This document shows, in pieces, positions 19,897 to 54,591 of a stretch of DNA of 64,000 nt. Each line of letters begins with the position of its first letter. Position 1 is the stretch's first letter. Made by a program: the position numbers and the translations under genes. This DNA is from a virus: positions 1 to 64,000 of the IMG/VR virus record IMGVR_UViG_3300009104_000012. One strand, written 5' to 3'. The notes below the pieces were generated by a model. It was given only the letters and a program-made list of their open reading frames with translations. It was not told where the DNA came from and did not search any database.

Positions 19897-20997
19897 TTAT
19901 AACTTGAATTTCTTAAACTGATTTTTCTCTACATCTTGTTTGATACCACCGATAACATAAGATTCTATTTCTGTTTCCTGTGGTGCGTTTTGTTGTGATC
20001 TACTATTCAACCAATGGTCAACCCAAGGTAATGGGTTTGTTTTTTGGTTATATTGGGACTCTAAACCTATAGCTCTCATCCGTCTATTAGCCATATACTC
20101 TACAAATTGGTGTAATAATTTTTCTGATAAACCTATCATACTACCTTGAGAAAATAGATAAGTTGCCCACCTTTTCTCTTCAGCAACTGCTTCATCATAC
20201 ATTTTATAAACTTGTTGTATGTTATCTCTAATAACTTTTAACATTACCTTATCGTTTTCAACCTCTTTATAGTTGTTTATAATTCTTTGTGATACTGCAA
20301 GGTGTTGAGACTCGTCTCTTGCAATAAAGGAAATAATCTTTGCACTACCTTCCATTAATTTTAATTCACCAAAGGCAAACGAACAAGCAAAAGAAACATA
20401 AAATCTTAAACCTTCCAAGATATTTACGGTAACCAATGCTAAATATAATCGTTTCTTTAGTTCATATATATCCACTTTACTCTTGTCTAATTGATATTTG
20501 TAACCTAATTCTATTAAATCATCATAACATTTGGTAACTGAAGCAGCTCTCTTCTCTATCTTCTCATCTGTAATAATGGTATCAAAAATTTCAGATGGAT
20601 TTGGATATAAATTTTTCATTATGTAAGTATAAGACCTACTATGAATTGTTTCCATAAAATCCCAGGTAACAATACAACCTTCTAATTCAGGTATAGATAC
20701 AAAAGGTAAAAATGCCAAACAAGGTCCTCTACCTTGTACACTATCTAACATTGTTTGGTATTTTAAATTAGATGTAAAGATATTCTTTTGATTAGGTAAT
20801 AATTCTCCATAATCATTTCTATCTTTCTGTAAAGATACTTCTTCTGGTCTCCAGAAAAAACCTAATTGTTGTTGTGTAAGTTTATCAAAGATAGGATATT
20901 TAAATGTATCATATCTTTGTACTCCTAAATCCTCACCAAAAAACATTGGTTGTTTAGTCATATCTAAATCTTTTGATTTATTAAAAACGGTTCTCAT
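19897..20997 (-). CDS. nrdB: ribonucleotide reductase class Ia beta subunit
   Basis: FFWRPEE, METIHSRSY, LEGLRFY, RDESQH, APQETEIESY. Confidence 0.96.
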   Translation of the reverse strand: MRTVFNKSKDLDMTKQPMFFGEDLGVQRYDTFKYPIFDKLTQQQLGFFWRPEEVSLQKDRNDYGELLPNQKNIFTSNLKYQTMLDSVQGRGPCLAFLPFVSIPELEGCIVTWDFMETIHSRSYTYIMKNLYPNPSEIFDTIITDEKIEKRAASVTKCYDDLIELGYKYQLDKSKVDIYELKKRLYLALVTVNILEGLRFYVSFACSFAFGELKLMEGSAKIISFIARDESQHLAVSQRIINNYKEVENDKVMLKVIRDNIQQVYKMYDEAVAEEKRWATYLFSQGSMIGLSEKLLHQFVEYMANRRMRAIGLESQYNQKTNPLPWVDHWLNSRSQQNAPQETEIESYVIGGIKQDVEKNQFKKFKL

Positions 20998-21455
20998 ATT
21001 TCCTTTTTTGTTTCTACTCCATAATATTCTTTATAGTTTTCAATCCAATAGTTAACTCTTTCCATAAACCAATCATAACCATTGTACCCAACCATTCGGT
21101 CCATTTCTTTAAAATTTTCCTCATCATAGATAATAAATGTAGGGACACCTCTTATAGGTTTAATATCCCCTCTTCCAACTGAATCTATAAACCATTTAGG
21201 TGGTTTACTAGCGTCAATAATTTTTAATGGTAGTGTCTTACTAGCTTCTGTATCTTTATAAGTTGGATACACCTCAACCATAAATGCCTGACAATAAGGA
21301 CAGGTTTTACTATGAAACATTAATAATTCATAAGCATATAATGGAGTACAAAGTAGGAAGAATACTATACTACAAACACTTATCAGGCGAGTCATAGGCG
21401 ACTTCATCCAAATAATCATTTGAGTCATAATCTTTTTTCTTAAATCTGTTTTCAT
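20994..21455 (-). CDS. exported thioredoxin-like protein (SoxS/SoxW-like)
   Basis: Signal-like segment, CPYC, GVPTFI, RMVGY; true start possibly 21395. Confidence 0.75.
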   Translation of the reverse strand: MKTDLRKKIMTQMIIWMKSPMTRLISVCSIVFFLLCTPLYAYELLMFHSKTCPYCQAFMVEVYPTYKDTEASKTLPLKIIDASKPPKWFIDSVGRGDIKPIRGVPTFIIYDEENFKEMDRMVGYNGYDWFMERVNYWIENYKEYYGVETKKEI

Positions 21456-22101
21456 CTTTTTCTTTCTTATCTTTCAATTCATAGAAAAAATGGTCATCAT
21501 CACCTGCTGTCCATTTTTCTTGTGATTCTACGCTGTATACCTTTGTAGAAACTTTGTAATCTGGAAATCTCATTTCACTTGGCGATAGAGATTTGTCGTA
21601 AAATATAGTTCTATTGTTTGGTTGAGCTGCAAAATGTCCATTTTCCAATCTCAATATGTTAAAAGATTTGTGCTGACTTGGTACTTCTGAATAAGTTATA
21701 TTTCTTTCCAAGTTGGTTGAATTGCAAACATCTATGGTAAACATATACCATCCTTTATACATTTTTTTACTAGGTGATAGATACTTACATCTATTACCTT
21801 CCAATAATTGTTTTTCAATTACTGCAATATCATAACTAAAACAATCCCATAATTCTAATTCAGTTAATGGTATGTCTTCTTTAAAATCTTCCTTCCAAAC
21901 AAACGCTGAAATTGGTAACTTATCGTACAAAGCACCTGTCTCATACAAAAATGTTTCAAAGTATAAAGCATTACCTTGAATACTTTTTGCTGTTGTCCAA
22001 ATACCTGGTTCTAATTCACCGTGTCCTTTTTGATGGTCATACAAATACTCTTTCTTAACAAACACCTCTACGTGTGGTATGTTTGCGACTAGAAATGCCA
22101 T
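21370..22101 (-). CDS. conserved hypothetical protein
   Basis: 243 aa; KLPISAF, ELWDCFSY and FAAQPNNR motifs recalled from marine alphaproteobacterial phages. Confidence 0.75.
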   Translation of the reverse strand: MAFLVANIPHVEVFVKKEYLYDHQKGHGELEPGIWTTAKSIQGNALYFETFLYETGALYDKLPISAFVWKEDFKEDIPLTELELWDCFSYDIAVIEKQLLEGNRCKYLSPSKKMYKGWYMFTIDVCNSTNLERNITYSEVPSQHKSFNILRLENGHFAAQPNNRTIFYDKSLSPSEMRFPDYKVSTKVYSVESQEKWTAGDDDHFFYELKDKKEKDENRFKKKDYDSNDYLDEVAYDSPDKCL

Positions 22102-22110
22102 AAAGTTCCT

Positions 22111-24411
22111 TTATATTACACACGATTCACAATCCTCTGGATCGCCTGTAGGTTGATGTTCTACTTCACTTGTATTGGAATCTGACAACACTTTATCATT
22201 TTGATCTAAATCTTTCTTACTATCATATGTGTTTTGATAATATGAAGTCTTCCATCCATACTTATATGTATTTAATAAGTCTTCTGCCATCTTTGATATT
22301 GGTACCTGACCATCTTTATAATGTTCAGGATTATATGACCAATTACCGCTGATAGCCTGATCAAAATACTTTTGCATTACCGAGACTATGTTTATATATC
22401 CTTCATTTGATTTCATATCCCATAGTAAAGTATAATTATTTTTTAGTCTTCTATAATCTGGTACAACCTGTTTTAAAGGTCCCTTTTTACTTTTCTTTAT
22501 AGAAAGATAATCTCTAGGTGGTTCTATGCCATTGGTGGCATTAGAAACCACACTAGAGGATTCAGACGGCATTTGAGCTGTGAGTGTGCTATGACGGAGG
22601 CCAGTCTCAACAATCTCCTTTCGGAGTTTCTCCCAATTGAAAGATAATTTGCGGCTAACAATTTCATCTACTTCCTTTTTATAGGTGTCAATTGGTAAGA
22701 TACCATCGGAATATTTTGTCTTATTAAAGTATTCACATTTACCTTTTTCTTTTGCTAGAGTTAAACTAGATTGTAAAAGGTAATATTGGAAAGCTTCTGA
22801 TAACTTATCTACTTCTCTCCAACCTTGTTTATCTTCATAAGAATAACCTAATTTTGCCAAATAATGTGCTAACCCTATATAACCAATGCCTAAACTTCTT
22901 CTGGCTTTAGTTGATATTTCAGCAGCTTTTACTGGATATTTTTGAAGGTCTATAACTTCATCAAGAGCCCTTACGGCTAAATCACATATAGGTTCTAACT
23001 CATCTAAACTATTAATCTTACCTACATTAACAGCAGATAAAATACATAGAGCAATCTCACCGTCCTCACCATCTATATGTTGAATTGGTTTGGTTGGTAA
23101 TGTTATCTCTTGACATAAGTTAGACATTGTAATTCTATCCTTAAATGAGGAGTGAGTATTACAATGGTCTATATTCATAATGTATATACGACCTGTTTCA
23201 GCTCTTTCTTTTAGCATTGCCATAAACAATTCTTGAGCTGATATTTTAATTTTACTTATTGATGTTTTTCGTTCAGCAATTTGGTACAAATTATCAAACT
23301 CTTTTGTACCAAATGCCTCAACTAATTCAGGTACGTCGTGTGGAGAAAACAAGGTGATGTCTTCGTCATTTATAAATCGTTCATAGAATAATTTGGATAA
23401 TTGTATGGAATAATCCAATTTTCTTACTCTATTATCTTCCGTACCTTTATTATTTTTTAATACTAATATGTCTTCTATTTCTTGGTGCCAAATAGGGAAG
23501 TGAGTAGTTGCACTCCCGCCTCTAACTCCATTTTGAGTACAACACTTAACCGTTGCTTCAAACTTTTTAAGGAAAGGGATAACTCCTGTATGTTGGACCT
23601 CACCTCCCCTAATTTTCGAGTTGATTCCTCGAATCCGACCTGCATTGATCCCAATTCCAGCACGCTGGGCAATGTAGCGGCCAATAGCCATATCACTAGA
23701 AAAGATACTAGGTAAAGTATCATCAATATCAACCAGTACACAACTAGCATACTGCCTAACAGGAGTCCTAACACCCGCCATAACAGGCGTAGGAATATTG
23801 ATTTTAAATCTGGATATAGCGTCATAATACCTTTTAACATAACTCATCCTCTTATTTTTAGGGTACTTTGCAAAGATAGTAGCTGCTATCATCATATACA
23901 TAAACTGGGGTGTCTCATACACCGTACCAGAGCTTCTATCTTGAACAAGGTACTTATCTATGATTTGCCTTAATCCTGCATAGGTAAAATCATAATCTCT
24001 TTCGTGTGTAATCCAATTTTCCATTCTATCAAAATCTTTTTTCTCATAATTTTTTAGAATAGATTCGTCATAAACTTTTTTCTCAACACAATTAGTTACG
24101 TGTTTATAAAAATGTGGGTGGTCCCATAGTCTGTGGAATATTTGTTTTCTTAATGAATATAAAAGTAATCTAGCAGCAACATATTGATAGTTTGGTGCTT
24201 CAAGGGAAATTAAATCTGAAGCTGACTTGATTAATATTTGTTGAATTTCTTTTGTGGTTATGTTATCATAAAATTGTAAATCACTATTCATTTCAACCTG
24301 TGAGGAAGATACACCACTTATATCTTCACAAGCATACTCAACCATTTCGTGTATCTTATCAATATTAAGAGGTTCTATACCTCTACCATTACGTTTCTTA
24401 ACATTTATCAT
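22111..24411 (-). CDS. nrdA: ribonucleotide reductase class Ia alpha subunit with ATP cone
   Basis: VKKRNG ATP cone, ASCVL, SNLCQEI, C-terminal CESCVI. Confidence 0.97.
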   Translation of the reverse strand: MINVKKRNGRGIEPLNIDKIHEMVEYACEDISGVSSSQVEMNSDLQFYDNITTKEIQQILIKSASDLISLEAPNYQYVAARLLLYSLRKQIFHRLWDHPHFYKHVTNCVEKKVYDESILKNYEKKDFDRMENWITHERDYDFTYAGLRQIIDKYLVQDRSSGTVYETPQFMYMMIAATIFAKYPKNKRMSYVKRYYDAISRFKINIPTPVMAGVRTPVRQYASCVLVDIDDTLPSIFSSDMAIGRYIAQRAGIGINAGRIRGINSKIRGGEVQHTGVIPFLKKFEATVKCCTQNGVRGGSATTHFPIWHQEIEDILVLKNNKGTEDNRVRKLDYSIQLSKLFYERFINDEDITLFSPHDVPELVEAFGTKEFDNLYQIAERKTSISKIKISAQELFMAMLKERAETGRIYIMNIDHCNTHSSFKDRITMSNLCQEITLPTKPIQHIDGEDGEIALCILSAVNVGKINSLDELEPICDLAVRALDEVIDLQKYPVKAAEISTKARRSLGIGYIGLAHYLAKLGYSYEDKQGWREVDKLSEAFQYYLLQSSLTLAKEKGKCEYFNKTKYSDGILPIDTYKKEVDEIVSRKLSFNWEKLRKEIVETGLRHSTLTAQMPSESSSVVSNATNGIEPPRDYLSIKKSKKGPLKQVVPDYRRLKNNYTLLWDMKSNEGYINIVSVMQKYFDQAISGNWSYNPEHYKDGQVPISKMAEDLLNTYKYGWKTSYYQNTYDSKKDLDQNDKVLSDSNTSEVEHQPTGDPEDCESCVI

Positions 24412-32324: not shown

Positions 32325-32564
32325 TTATCCTTTTATCTTTTTAGTTATCCAAAGTACAGCTGCATACATTATTAAAGCATAAACGGAAACAAATAAAATT
32401 TCTGGAATATATTGAAATACATTGTAGGTTAAATCTAATACTGCTTCAACATCTCCCATTTCAGAAGATCCGTCTTCATCCATATCAATGGTTATAGATT
32501 TGGTAAAATCTCCTTCTACATTACCAACATTTTGTTCTATGTCTAATGTATTGTCTTCGTTCAT
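32325..32564 (-). CDS. small membrane protein
   Basis: Acidic N-terminus with a C-terminal TM. Confidence 0.6.
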   Translation of the reverse strand: MNEDNTLDIEQNVGNVEGDFTKSITIDMDEDGSSEMGDVEAVLDLTYNVFQYIPEILFVSVYALIMYAAVLWITKKIKG

Positions 32565-32728
32565 TTTCTATCTGATAACTTATTAATAAGGTCAAACGCA
32601 ACTTTTACTTTTTCTTTAAGCACGATTATATCTCCGTGCATTTTTGCTAGGACAATTACCAAAGTTATAAACCCTAAAAATAAGGGCCACATCTTCATTA
32701 ACATTGTCATTACTTCTAACGATTCCAT
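32561..32728 (-). CDS. small membrane protein (55 aa, not in ORF track)
   Basis: SD AAGGAG; MESLEVMTMLMKMWPLFLGFITLVIVLAKMHGD...; ATGA overlap with the next gene. Confidence 0.7.
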   Translation of the reverse strand: MESLEVMTMLMKMWPLFLGFITLVIVLAKMHGDIIVLKEKVKVAFDLINKLSDRK

Positions 32729-32741
32729 AATCTCCTTTTGG

Positions 32742-32867
32742 TTATTGTATTATTTTATGATCGGGTCTTTCTTTTTCGCAAGCCGAGCAATCACATTTTT
32801 TACAATCGCAATTTGAGCAAGTCTCTGGACAATGTGCTTCACATTTACAATTTCTACAATCTTCCAT
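32742..32867 (-). CDS. metallothionein-like Cys-rich peptide (41 aa, not in ORF track)
   Basis: SD AAGGAG 5 nt upstream; MEDCRNCKCEAHCPETCSNCDCKKCDCSACEKERPDHKIIQ has 10 Cys and 2 His. Confidence 0.75.
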   Translation of the reverse strand: MEDCRNCKCEAHCPETCSNCDCKKCDCSACEKERPDHKIIQ

Positions 32868-32971
32868 ATTTTCTCCTTAATTTCTTTTCTAAATGCTATA
32901 GCACCGCCAGTAAGTAAAATGAATAGTATTAAATATCCCATTGTTGGTCCGTTATCTATGTATTCAATCAC
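32750..32971 (-). CDS. small membrane protein overlapping the Cys-rich ORF
   Basis: TM in the N-terminal half; the C-terminal half is a frame-shifted shadow of the Cys-rich ORF. Confidence 0.45.
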   Translation of the reverse strand: MIEYIDNGPTMGYLILFILLTGGAIAFRKEIKEKIWKIVEIVNVKHIVQRLAQIAIVKNVIARLAKKKDPIIK

Positions 32972-34164
32972 TTCTTAAACTTGGCAGCTTCTTCTGAACC
33001 TTTTGTAGCACTACCTTTACTATAACTATGTGCTCCCATTCCAGCAAGTTCACCATCTTTTACAATATAATATTTATCTCTTATGTCAGTCTTATCAAAG
33101 AAACATTCCAATATTTCTCTAACACCAGCAGCATATCTATATTGTGCTGATAGAGAAGTTCCACTTGTATGTGGTGTCATACCGTGGTTTGGCATTGTTC
33201 TCCAAACGTGGTCATTTGGTGCTGGTTGTGGAAACCAAACATCACCTGCGTAACCACTTAATTGACCTGACTCTAATGCTCTTGCGATAGCGTCTCTATC
33301 ACAAATCTTTCCTCTAGCAGTATTAACTATATATGCTCCAGGTTTACATTTACCAATTAGTTCATCATTAAATAAATGTTCCGTTTCTGGATGTAAAGGA
33401 CAACTTATATTAATTACATCACATACACTAACTAATGACTCTACTGAATCGTGGAAAGTTAAGTTTAATTCTTTTTCTTTTTCTTCTGGCAATCTATGTC
33501 TATCAAAGTAATGTAAGTGTACATCAAATGGTGCCATCTTTCTTAACATATCATAACCAATACGACCAGCTGCAATTGTTCCTATGTGCATACCTTCTAC
33601 ATCATAAGATCGTTTAACTGCGTCAGCAATATGCCAACCACCTTCGTTAACTATTCTATGTTGATTGTGGTAATCTCTTACTAAAGATAAAATCATCATA
33701 ACTATATGTTCAGCAACTGACCGTGAATTACAATAAGTTACCTCAACTACATCTACTTTATTATCCATCGCAGCTTGTAAATCTACGTGGTCTGAACCAA
33801 TACCTGCTGTGATTGCCATTTTTAAATTTGGTGCTGATTCCATTTTTTCTCTTGTTAAATAATAAGGCCAAAATGGTTGTGATATAACCACATCAGCGTC
33901 AACTAATTCTTTATCTGCTTGACAACCTTCTCCGTCTTTATCAGACGTAACAACTAATGTATGTCCATTGTCTTCTAAAAATTTTCTCAATCCCAATTCA
34001 CCTGATACACAACCTAATAATTCTCCAGGTGTAAAGTCAATTGCTTTGGGTGTTGGTAGTGTCATACCATCTGGATACTTTTCTAATTTAGGTAAGTCTT
34101 TGACAGGATATGATTTTGGCATACCGTCTTTGGGGTCATCATATAATATACATAATATTTTCAT
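32968..34164 (-). CDS. fdh: NAD-dependent formate dehydrogenase
   Basis: LYDDP, LLGCVSGELGLR, SQPFWP, YCNS, AAGRIG, FDRH, NTARG, DVWFPQPAP, MTPHTSG as in Pseudomonas-type FDH. Confidence 0.95.
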   Translation of the reverse strand: MKILCILYDDPKDGMPKSYPVKDLPKLEKYPDGMTLPTPKAIDFTPGELLGCVSGELGLRKFLEDNGHTLVVTSDKDGEGCQADKELVDADVVISQPFWPYYLTREKMESAPNLKMAITAGIGSDHVDLQAAMDNKVDVVEVTYCNSRSVAEHIVMMILSLVRDYHNQHRIVNEGGWHIADAVKRSYDVEGMHIGTIAAGRIGYDMLRKMAPFDVHLHYFDRHRLPEEKEKELNLTFHDSVESLVSVCDVINISCPLHPETEHLFNDELIGKCKPGAYIVNTARGKICDRDAIARALESGQLSGYAGDVWFPQPAPNDHVWRTMPNHGMTPHTSGTSLSAQYRYAAGVREILECFFDKTDIRDKYYIVKDGELAGMGAHSYSKGSATKGSEEAAKFKK

Positions 34165-38285: not shown

Positions 38286-38293
38286 TATTTATA
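38286..38293 (-). promoter_or_regulatory. T4 late promoter
   Basis: TATAAATA, intergenic. Confidence 0.75.
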
Positions 38294-52656: not shown

Positions 52657-53485
52657 TAGCTAATCTCCTTGCACCATAAGTTATCATAAAATCTGCACCA
52701 GCTCTTTTAAATACTTCGTATGTTTCTCTTAAACTACCAGGCGCACCAATACCTAACCACTCACCCGATACTTGATAAGCACCACAAGGTTTGCCTGTTG
52801 CTTTCTTTATGCCATAAATTAAATCTATACTTGTCATACCTGGTTTCACCATTAATTCATCTGCACCATCTTGAGCATATTTTATAGACCTTTTAATTGC
52901 ACCTGCTTTATCTGATACATCTAATTGATATGGTCTTTCAATCCCTTTCGGTATCGCCATAGTCTCACGCCAACCTCTATAAAAAGTAGAACGGAATTTT
53001 GTACTATAACTCATCACAGGTATATTACCATCTTTTATTGATTTAATATTCTTAACCGTATTATCTTGACAATCACTTGGTGCTATTGTAGCACCTGAAG
53101 CTGTGTAAATATCTTTTGCTTGTTGTAATAATAATTTATCTGTACGCTCTTGGTCTCCTATAATGCAACAATGTCCGTCCTGTGTATAAGAACATAAACA
53201 AATATCTACATTTAATTTAATAGGTAAAGTTGAAAGACTAGCTGCTACTACACATACTTGGTCAAATTTATGGTCATCAATTCCTTCTCCAGGTCTCCAA
53301 CTATCTGATTTTTCTCCTAGTTTAAATTCTGGAACATAGAATAATAAAAACTCTTTAACACCTAGGTCTATATCTTTCTTAACTCTTTCGTTAATTTCTT
53401 TCCAAGCATTAAAAATTTTATTATCTTCACCTAATCCAGTATCTTTTGTTCTAGGTCCAGCAAATATTGGTTGTATTAATCTCAT
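52643..53485 (-). CDS. hemB: porphobilinogen synthase (ALA dehydratase), Zn-type, compact
   Basis: DICLCSYTQDGHC, APSD, MSYSTKF and MVKPG catalytic Lys, AYQVSGE, RAGAD..ITY. Confidence 0.88.
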   Translation of the reverse strand: MRLIQPIFAGPRTKDTGLGEDNKIFNAWKEINERVKKDIDLGVKEFLLFYVPEFKLGEKSDSWRPGEGIDDHKFDQVCVVAASLSTLPIKLNVDICLCSYTQDGHCCIIGDQERTDKLLLQQAKDIYTASGATIAPSDCQDNTVKNIKSIKDGNIPVMSYSTKFRSTFYRGWRETMAIPKGIERPYQLDVSDKAGAIKRSIKYAQDGADELMVKPGMTSIDLIYGIKKATGKPCGAYQVSGEWLGIGAPGSLRETYEVFKRAGADFMITYGARRLANDIR

Positions 53486-54591
53486 CTTATTATATCAATC
53501 TTGTCCATAGTCTGATTGTTCCATACTTCGTTTTCAGTTCTTAATTTATTATCTGTTTTTAATTTGTCATATCTTTTTGTTGCTTTATTCTTCCACCATT
53601 TTACAATATTTTCTAATTCAAATTTATCATAGTTTTCACCTTTAATTAACTTATCGGTCTTACCTAATAATATATCTTTGACATTTGAGAAACCATAATC
53701 TGACATATAAAATCTTTTTTGTGTTGTAATACCTTCTGCCTTTGCCATAGATTTAACAAAGGTATCATAATCACCACTACCTTTTAATGCTCTCTTAACC
53801 ATACCAATCATTGCTGTGGTAATTTTTAACTTTCTACTAGAGGCACCTTTATGTACAATATCATCACCTATAATATCTTCAATATAACTTTTTAAATTAA
53901 AATAAGTTTCTTCACCTAAAGTTGGTACAAATTTTGACATTGTATCTCCTTTATATCTTAAATATGGTTTCAGTCCATCATACATAGATGTACCTTTTAT
54001 ATTACCATATAAACTTGTAGTTTCAAACAAACAAAATTCTGTATCATATTTCTTATTTAGCATTTCTCTTACTTTATGAGAACAACAAATCAATGCCAAT
54101 AGTTTACCACCAAGATAATTAAAACCAAATGGTTGTACTGGTACTATATTGAAACCCATTATGGCCCTTTTATTAAAGATAGGTAAATCTGGAGTACCAC
54201 CCAAATAATTATTTCTTGGTTTAGAATTGATAATAGGCGAACCTAATTTAATAAATCCTATAATAGTATTTGAAGTATTATCTTTAACAACTAATTTTAA
54301 TTCTTTACCTGGCGCCTGGTCTGGAGAGAAACTAGCAATCATTTCCAACATTGTATTAAAAGTGGAGTGTTGCATTTCAACCACTTGTATATCCATATCT
54401 TCAGGTTTAATATTATAATCATTAAACATATCATCTTCCAATCCAAAACCTGGTAGTGATGGTGGAATATTCTTAACTCTTTCAATCTTTCTCAATCTAA
54501 AATAGTCATCTATACGATTCAAACTATCAAAATAATCTCTAAAGATTTTAGAGCAATGTAATGCTTGTTCAACGTTTAGGGTCTTCATCAT
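53482..54591 (-). CDS. DUF4338 / Mom-like GNAT-fold protein
   Basis: PGKELK...GFIKLGSP, IVPVQPFGFNYLGGKLLAL, ETTSLYG. Confidence 0.7.
   Translation of the reverse strand: MMKTLNVEQALHCSKIFRDYFDSLNRIDDYFRLRKIERVKNIPPSLPGFGLEDDMFNDYNIKPEDMDIQVVEMQHSTFNTMLEMIASFSPDQAPGKELKLVVKDNTSNTIIGFIKLGSPIINSKPRNNYLGGTPDLPIFNKRAIMGFNIVPVQPFGFNYLGGKLLALICCSHKVREMLNKKYDTEFCLFETTSLYGNIKGTSMYDGLKPYLRYKGDTMSKFVPTLGEETYFNLKSYIEDIIGDDIVHKGASSRKLKITTAMIGMVKRALKGSGDYDTFVKSMAKAEGITTQKRFYMSDYGFSNVKDILLGKTDKLIKGENYDKFELENIVKWWKNKATKRYDKLKTDNKLRTENEVWNNQTMDKIDIIR

Follow-up and report, generated by a model that had tools for sequence, protein, structure and literature searches.

Two open reading frames overlap at this locus, and the question is which of them is the gene and what its product might do. 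The window, that is the whole stretch of DNA analysed here (64,000 nucleotides), is part of a 73.9-kb IMG/VR virus record that is about 40% complete. It is AT-rich, and almost all of its genes lie on the minus strand. Its DNA polymerase is of the T4 type and shares 68% identity with the polymerase of Pelagibacter phage Mosig EXVC030M; the window also encodes an RNR, a DnaB-like helicase, a curli CsgF gene and a CHASE2 cyclase. The phage is a pelagimyophage-like, T4-type virus, probably infecting SAR11. Pelagimyophages carry curli operons, and a ‘deep ecotype’ has formate dehydrogenase and heme genes (PMC7029224); that paper mentions no Cys protein of the kind described below. The features of the locus are as follows.

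32968-34164, minus strand: NAD-dependent formate dehydrogenase-like (FDH-like) gene, 2-hydroxyacid dehydrogenase family (Pfam PF02826 and PF00389)
32868-32967, minus strand: 100-nt spacer from the FDH stop to the start of the Cys gene, unique to this genome
32873-32878, minus strand: Shine–Dalgarno (SD) sequence AAGGAG of the Cys gene, read directly
32742-32867, minus strand: gene of a Cys-rich 41-aa mini-protein, stop codon included, with homologues at 46-98% identity
32750-32971, minus strand: 73-aa ORF with a GTG start and an internal ATG at 32941, judged spurious
32561-32728, minus strand: gene of a 55-aa mini-protein, next downstream of the Cys gene, with its own AAGGAG and homologues at 52-59% identity
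32325-32564, minus strand: gene of a 79-aa protein, beyond the 55-aa gene

A Cys-rich gene under purifying selection

An earlier note on this DNA had described a hidden Cys-rich ORF without giving its strand, which is minus. Reading the ORFs of the window places the start codon of the 41-aa ORF at an ATG. The sequence 5′ of this ATG is TAAGGAGAAAAT, and the SD that had been reported ahead of the ORF is indeed present, with a 5-nt spacer to the start. The composition given for the product is likewise confirmed by the translation: it has 10 Cys residues (at positions 4, 7, 9, 13, 17, 20, 22, 25, 27 and 30), two His residues (at positions 12 and 37), while Phe, Trp and Tyr are absent. Its net charge, counted by hand, is near zero. 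Cys thus makes up 24% of the product (10/41), whereas the mean Cys fraction across the 409 small ORFs of the window (25-80 aa) is 2.7%. The other small ORFs of this set with at least 15% Cys are all alternative-frame products without an ATG start, and none of the 409 besides the Cys gene is both ATG-started and near 24% Cys. The ORF is thus no chance product: it stands out among the small ORFs of the window, and about 47 further viral loci keep its frame.

The conservation of the frame can be followed in detail. A pattern scan with the family alignment returned 51 viral loci; an intact small homologue with its frame open is found in 46 of these (about 47), and the remaining five are a chance match within a large protein. 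The identical 41-aa protein is called on 52 contigs, with further relatives at 76-98% identity, and the length differences among family members are whole codons throughout. In the related loci the gene is preceded by purine-rich, SD-like stretches or by a stop/start overlap with the upstream gene. We measured selection on 14 short-form loci over 31 codons. The pN/pS ratio is 0.26 in the Cys frame, compared with 1.09 in the +1 frame (that of the 73-aa ORF) and 0.90 in the +2 frame, and the variable columns are distributed 12/13/28 over the three codon positions of the Cys frame. One antisense frame is also low (pN/pS of 0.30), as would be expected, given that its third codon positions fall on those of the sense gene. 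Three DNA runs of marine plankton and one doubtful ‘RNA?’ run gave, over 32708-33081, only contigs identical to the window, and so offer no variation within the population by which the frames could be compared; the doubtful ‘RNA?’ contig, of uncertain nature, spans 32809-32948.

The 73-aa ORF, for its part, shares 118 of its 222 nt with the Cys gene, in the +1 frame. In this frame the TGT/TGC codons of the Cys gene become GTx (Val) and ATT (Ile), which is the origin that had been proposed for the Ile/Val-rich tail of the ORF. The +1 frame is open in 13.7% of codon shuffles of the Cys ORF, compared with 2.1% of equal-length windows in long genes. The first 34 codons of the 73-aa ORF fall inside the 100-nt spacer, which is absent from related genomes: in the related FDH loci 2-4 nt separate the FDH stop from the start of the Cys gene, and a search of 131 loci gave no significant match to the spacer. 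An ATG lies within the spacer; the reading frame after it encodes a hydrophobic stretch of 18 residues and reaches the Cys gene without meeting a stop. We found no relatives of the 73-aa ORF in the viral contig collection or in the 131 fetched loci.

We may wonder at this stage whether the 73-aa ORF could also, or instead, be translated, as a small membrane protein with its C-terminal part encoded over the Cys gene. Such dual coding would suit a frame that is open over 73 codons and hydrophobic at residues 11-28, in a block where small transmembrane-type genes are frequent. However, the ORF has no relatives, its frame shows a pN/pS of 1.09 and is kept open by composition, its start is a GTG or else an internal ATG with a weak SD, and the related FDH loci lack any spacer in which it could begin. 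We consider dual coding very improbable, and judge the 73-aa ORF to be a spurious compositional by-product, with a hydrophobic start in the spacer and a run-on in the +1 frame of the Cys gene. Since the Cys frame is conserved and under purifying selection, and the 73-aa frame is neither, comparison of the homologous loci gives good support to the minus-strand 41-codon frame as a genuine, conserved protein-coding gene. The proposal of a real gene hidden in an alternative frame therefore stands, and the check suggested with it, namely conservation of the Cys frame against the 73-aa frame, favours the former. This gene escapes gene finders and the 60-aa threshold on ORF length, and annotation would give the longer ORF that overlaps it instead. 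Getting the call right is of consequence for annotating pelagimyophages, which rank among the most abundant phages of the ocean.

A family seen only in phages, in varied surroundings

On the minus strand the order is FDH-like gene, 100-nt spacer, Cys gene, 55-aa gene and 79-aa gene, and the block is convergent with the cyclase gene. The FDH-like gene, the upstream neighbour of the Cys gene, is found in at least 80 viral loci at 78-93% identity. Its 3′ neighbour varies across the relatives (L002-L081), being the Cys gene, the 55-aa gene, a GMP-reductase-like gene (L002/L074) or others. This variation marks the position just 3′ of the FDH stop as a hot spot of recombination. Read by eye, the 55-aa mini-protein has an N-terminal hydrophobic stretch, likely transmembrane, and then a charged tail; it has no match in Pfam or in the isolate phages of GenBank. 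Its homologues directly follow the Cys gene (with a TAATG overlap), or the FDH-like gene where the Cys gene is absent. We considered a fixed functional pairing of the Cys gene with this membrane protein and rejected it: each is found without the other, and no fused form occurs among the representatives.

The late-promoter motif TATAAATA occurs seven times in the window, compared with 18 expected from shuffles, and all seven copies are on the minus (coding) strand. This count and strand bias would fit use of the motif as T4-type late promoters and its avoidance elsewhere. The copy nearest to the Cys gene on its upstream side is at 38286-38293, and late co-transcription of the gene is possible. 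Elsewhere in the window, within the phage replication block, a 369-aa ORF (53482-54591, minus strand) matches the DruA domain of Druantia (PF14236, E 1.4e-11).

An exhaustive profile search of 1.84 billion representatives returned only 11 clusters at 50% identity. The matches are all of at most 70 aa, with no fused forms, barring one of 499 aa (P0016), which we set aside as an unrelated repeat protein matched through one short Cys motif. No member was found in cellular genomes by one pattern scan of the GTDB genome contigs (185,579 prokaryote species), and none in the GenBank phage isolates by tblastn. The gene is present as a single copy in five of the five viral records tested, two of which are complete genomes (171 and 177 kb). 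Judging from these searches, the family is apparently phage-restricted.

Within phages the gene sits in at least six different, unrelated gene neighbourhoods.

Context 1: after the FDH-like gene and before the 55-aa membrane protein
Context 2: after a spanin-like pair
Context 3: between nrdA and nrdB (L083, L120-L124)
Context 4: after a ferredoxin-like gene and an L7/L12 gene (L088)
Context 5: before a P-loop kinase-like gene
Context 6: beside tail genes

No neighbour is constant, so context points to no function. The Cys gene of the window is not near its nrdAB genes (19897-24411), and no metal transporter or regulator adjoins the family gene in any of the contexts examined. In the fourth context, a marine viral contig (L088:2311-2996), a ferredoxin-like gene, identified by eye from CxxCxxC-type motifs, and a full ribosomal protein L7/L12 (PF00542, PF16320, E 8e-25) lie just upstream of the Cys gene.

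An invariant ligand set in two architectures

We aligned 33 sequences of the family and compared them with 10 further cluster representatives. The positions C4, N6, C7, H12, C13, P14, E15, C22, C25, C27, S28 and C30 are invariant in the alignment, and A11, K24 and D26 are at least 90% conserved. The seven Cys and one His of this set are also invariant in the 10 further representatives, and most family members end in ...I-V-Q. The family signature is CxNC-x4-HCPE ... CxxCxCxxC, in proteins of 34-61 aa (up to 70 aa as called). The HCPE signature is unmatched in the Pfam, NCBIfam and PDB families searched.

This common core comes in two architectures. Loop forms, called at 46-70 aa, account for about half of the family; in them a 9-24-residue, partly aromatic insert separates HCPE from the final CxxCxCxxC block; this insert is hairpin-like and lies between the two invariant CxxC knuckles, C4xxC7 and C22xxC25. 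The loop forms have 7-9 Cys (seven, with one His, in most), amounting to 11-15% of the residues (13% in one gene call), and at least one aromatic residue. In the Cys-dense forms, which include that of the window, the insert is replaced by [TV]-C-x-x-C; they are of 34-46 aa, with 9-10 Cys and at most one aromatic residue. The window's own copy has T-C-x-x-C in place of the loop, between the second and third ligand pairs. A Cys or His occupies position 9 in all 22 Cys-dense forms compared with three of the 20 loop forms (Fisher p = 4e-9, uncorrected for phylogeny), and C17 is missing in all 20 loop forms.

In the alignment, this interchange of Cys and His at position 9, tied to two added Cys residues, is the pattern expected of a metal ligand. 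The eight invariant candidate ligands would be enough for two tetrahedral Zn sites, and by inference the 11 of the short form might make either a small cluster or a third site with one shared thiolate. Three loci carry a second Cys/His mini-gene (44-48 aa) right downstream of the first, with an overlapping stop/start (L094:3138-3269, L109:3165-3308 and L111:3165-3308). Its N-terminus is M-K-C-K-[NS]-C-H-H-D-C-H-C-N-E-E, and it aligns with the family profile at an hhalign probability of 90%; it may be a divergent tandem paralogue of the Cys gene.

Neither the Cys protein nor its family matches any curated family in Pfam, PHROGs or NCBIfam, and the window protein matches no Pfam family at E up to 1. 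Among the matches of the 33 members at E up to 5 there is no metallothionein Pfam model (PF00131, PF02069, PF02067 or others). The sub-threshold Pfam matches come from the loop forms only and are all to zinc-ribbon or treble-clef families (E 0.018-3.6). A sequence profile search of the PDB gave nothing significant (best E 0.53). AlphaFold2, run with the 33-sequence alignment, gave models of low confidence (pLDDT of 58 for the short form and 50 for the loop form), and we therefore make no claim about the fold. We found nothing relevant in the literature on phage or viral metallothioneins and on small phage zinc proteins.

A zinc finger or a metallothionein?

The earlier note had called the protein metallothionein-like, and this claim holds in part. 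That the protein binds metal is very likely, because seven Cys and one His are invariant and because Cys and His interchange at position 9; on the other hand, no metallothionein family is matched, and the core is a set of eight ligands, as in a two-zinc finger. The storage or buffering role put forward in the note, and any link to the other Zn enzymes of the window, are conjectural. Somewhat on the favourable side of even, we think that the protein would be a structural multi-zinc mini-domain that acts by binding a partner, the reality of the gene and its product's binding of metal being all but certain within this reading. Its family, apparently restricted to phages, is undescribed. The ligand pairs C4/C7, H12/C13, C22/C25 and C27/C30 would most likely hold two structural Zn(II) ions, in the style of a zinc ribbon or a double knuckle. 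In the short form, where TCxxC replaces the loop and position 9 is Cys or His, the 11 ligands could bind zinc at a third site or as a small Zn3 cluster. The metal would be structural and not stored. The folded mini-domain, with its conserved non-ligand residues and its ...I-V-Q tail, would bind a host or phage macromolecule, by analogy with other phage zinc-finger mini-proteins. We infer the identity of the metal as zinc, the stoichiometry and the partner-binding mode from the ligand pattern and from this analogy. Nucleic-acid binding is not obvious, since the net charge is near zero.

The composition of the window copy nevertheless invites another reading, in which the short form is truly metallothionein-like: it would hold a metal-thiolate cluster (about three Zn, Cd or Cu(I) ions) and would sequester, buffer or deliver metal as the product of an auxiliary metabolic gene. 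With 10 Cys in 41 residues, CxC and CxxC runs and no aromatic residues, the copy meets a loose compositional definition of a metallothionein. The number of its potential ligands, 11, exceeds what two independent sites require and is one less than three would need, a count that suggests bridging thiolates. A feature match to a metallothionein cluster (PF02067) in the ESM-Atlas scores 0.83, below the 0.9 level, and is a lead only; the varied genomic context would suit a stand-alone accessory function. Yet no Pfam metallothionein model is matched even at E up to 5, no metal-regulator context is seen, the gene lying within ordinary phage operons, and the non-Cys residues and C-terminal tail are strongly conserved. 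Cys density is not conserved either: high Cys with few aromatics, the operational metallothionein trait, is present in the Cys-dense forms and absent from the loop forms (mostly seven Cys in 46-61 residues), which make up half of the family, with 7-9 Cys, aromatics and a long insert. We regard this metallothionein-like reading as unlikely. A finger is favoured over a metal sponge because what is conserved is a fixed eight-ligand scaffold together with specific non-ligand residues and the C-terminal tail, and because members do not have a high density of Cys in common, half of them being quite unlike metallothionein. A bolder proposal, which we hold with a little more doubt still, is a virus-specific metallothionein in SAR11-type myophages, in which the hairpin of a two-zinc finger would have been replaced by an extra Cys knuckle, producing a three-metal thiolate cluster that captures or redistributes scarce zinc, or detoxifies Cu or Cd.

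The two invariant CxxC knuckles could in principle hold iron instead. The protein would then be a rubredoxin- or desulforedoxin-like redox mini-protein with Fe(Cys)4 at these knuckles, passing electrons to phage enzymes such as ribonucleotide reductase. In E. coli the YfaE ferredoxin supplies NrdB with electrons, and in several phages the family gene lies between nrdA and nrdB; the L088 copy, moreover, follows the ferredoxin-like gene recognized by eye. But nrd genes are the neighbours in just one of the six or more contexts, the window gene is away from nrdAB, there is no rubredoxin match in Pfam, the aromatic core typical of rubredoxins is missing from the short forms, and 8-11 ligands exceed the need of one Fe site, so that we find an iron protein improbable. 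As for a precursor peptide of a Cys-rich, ribosomally synthesized natural product (of the SCIFF, ranthipeptide or sactipeptide type), the size and Cys density of the family presumably resemble those of SCIFF-type precursors. None of the contexts examined has a radical-SAM or other maturase next to the gene, however, NCBIfam gives no match to SCIFF or related models, and both the loop variants and the invariance of His, Pro and Glu are in keeping with a folded domain; this origin is hardly credible.

What the gene means depends on which of these readings is right. Should the protein turn out to buffer metal in zinc-poor seawater, its gene would represent a new kind of auxiliary gene in viruses, and a virus-specific metallothionein would add a new class of auxiliary metabolic genes, with a metallothionein evolved from a zinc finger. 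The partner-binding finger that we favour would join the small phage proteins of host takeover or regulation, undescribed but of an ordinary kind. The loop forms and the forms with an extra Cys knuckle make a compact natural experiment on the way in which a zinc finger may gain a metal site and drift towards a metallothionein-like composition. The kind is already known, since small Cys-rich zinc-binding ORFs are common in phages; the Cys family, its ligand signature and its two architectures are undescribed.

Like metallothioneins (the vertebrate MT beta-domain and the bacterial SmtA/BmtA, PF02069), the window copy is small, with 24% Cys and no aromatic residues. Its run C20-x-C-x2-C-x-C-x2-C30 has what we take to be the spacing of the CKCKECKCTSC segment of mammalian MT-2, which is part of the MT beta-domain, and the zinc-finger-like fold of SmtA can hold a Cys9His2 cluster. 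Unlike in metallothioneins, only seven Cys and one His are kept family-wide, the loop forms have 11-15% Cys together with aromatics, the non-ligand positions and C-terminal tail are conserved, and no member matches the sequence of any MT Pfam model. The loop forms have two CxxC knuckles around a short hairpin-like loop, as do zinc ribbons and CxxC-knuckle mini-proteins (Zn_ribbon_3 PF13248, ZPR1-type PF03367 and the archaeal DUF7562), the only kinds of Pfam family to appear, all below their curated thresholds. The family differs from zinc ribbons in its second invariant ligand set (H12-C13 and C27-x2-C30), which is interleaved with the ribbon ligands.

The Cys-dense forms also reproduce exactly the spacing of the retroviral-type CCHC knuckle (PF00098, CX2CX4HX4C), as C4-x2-C7-x4-H12-x4-C17, and NCp7 chains are among the weakest PDB profile matches, at a non-significant E of at least 2.9. 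We rejected this knuckle as the conserved unit of the family: there is no Pfam match, and C17 is absent from every loop form (20/20). Finally, Com of phage Mu and Ogr/Delta of P2/P4 are stand-alone phage proteins of about 60-70 aa with a structural Cys4 zinc, which bind RNA or RNA polymerase. They have no sequence similarity to the family, and they are basic with a single Zn site, whereas the family is near neutral with 8-11 ligands. As small stand-alone phage proteins, Com and Ogr/Delta are nonetheless the functional analogy that we favour for the family.
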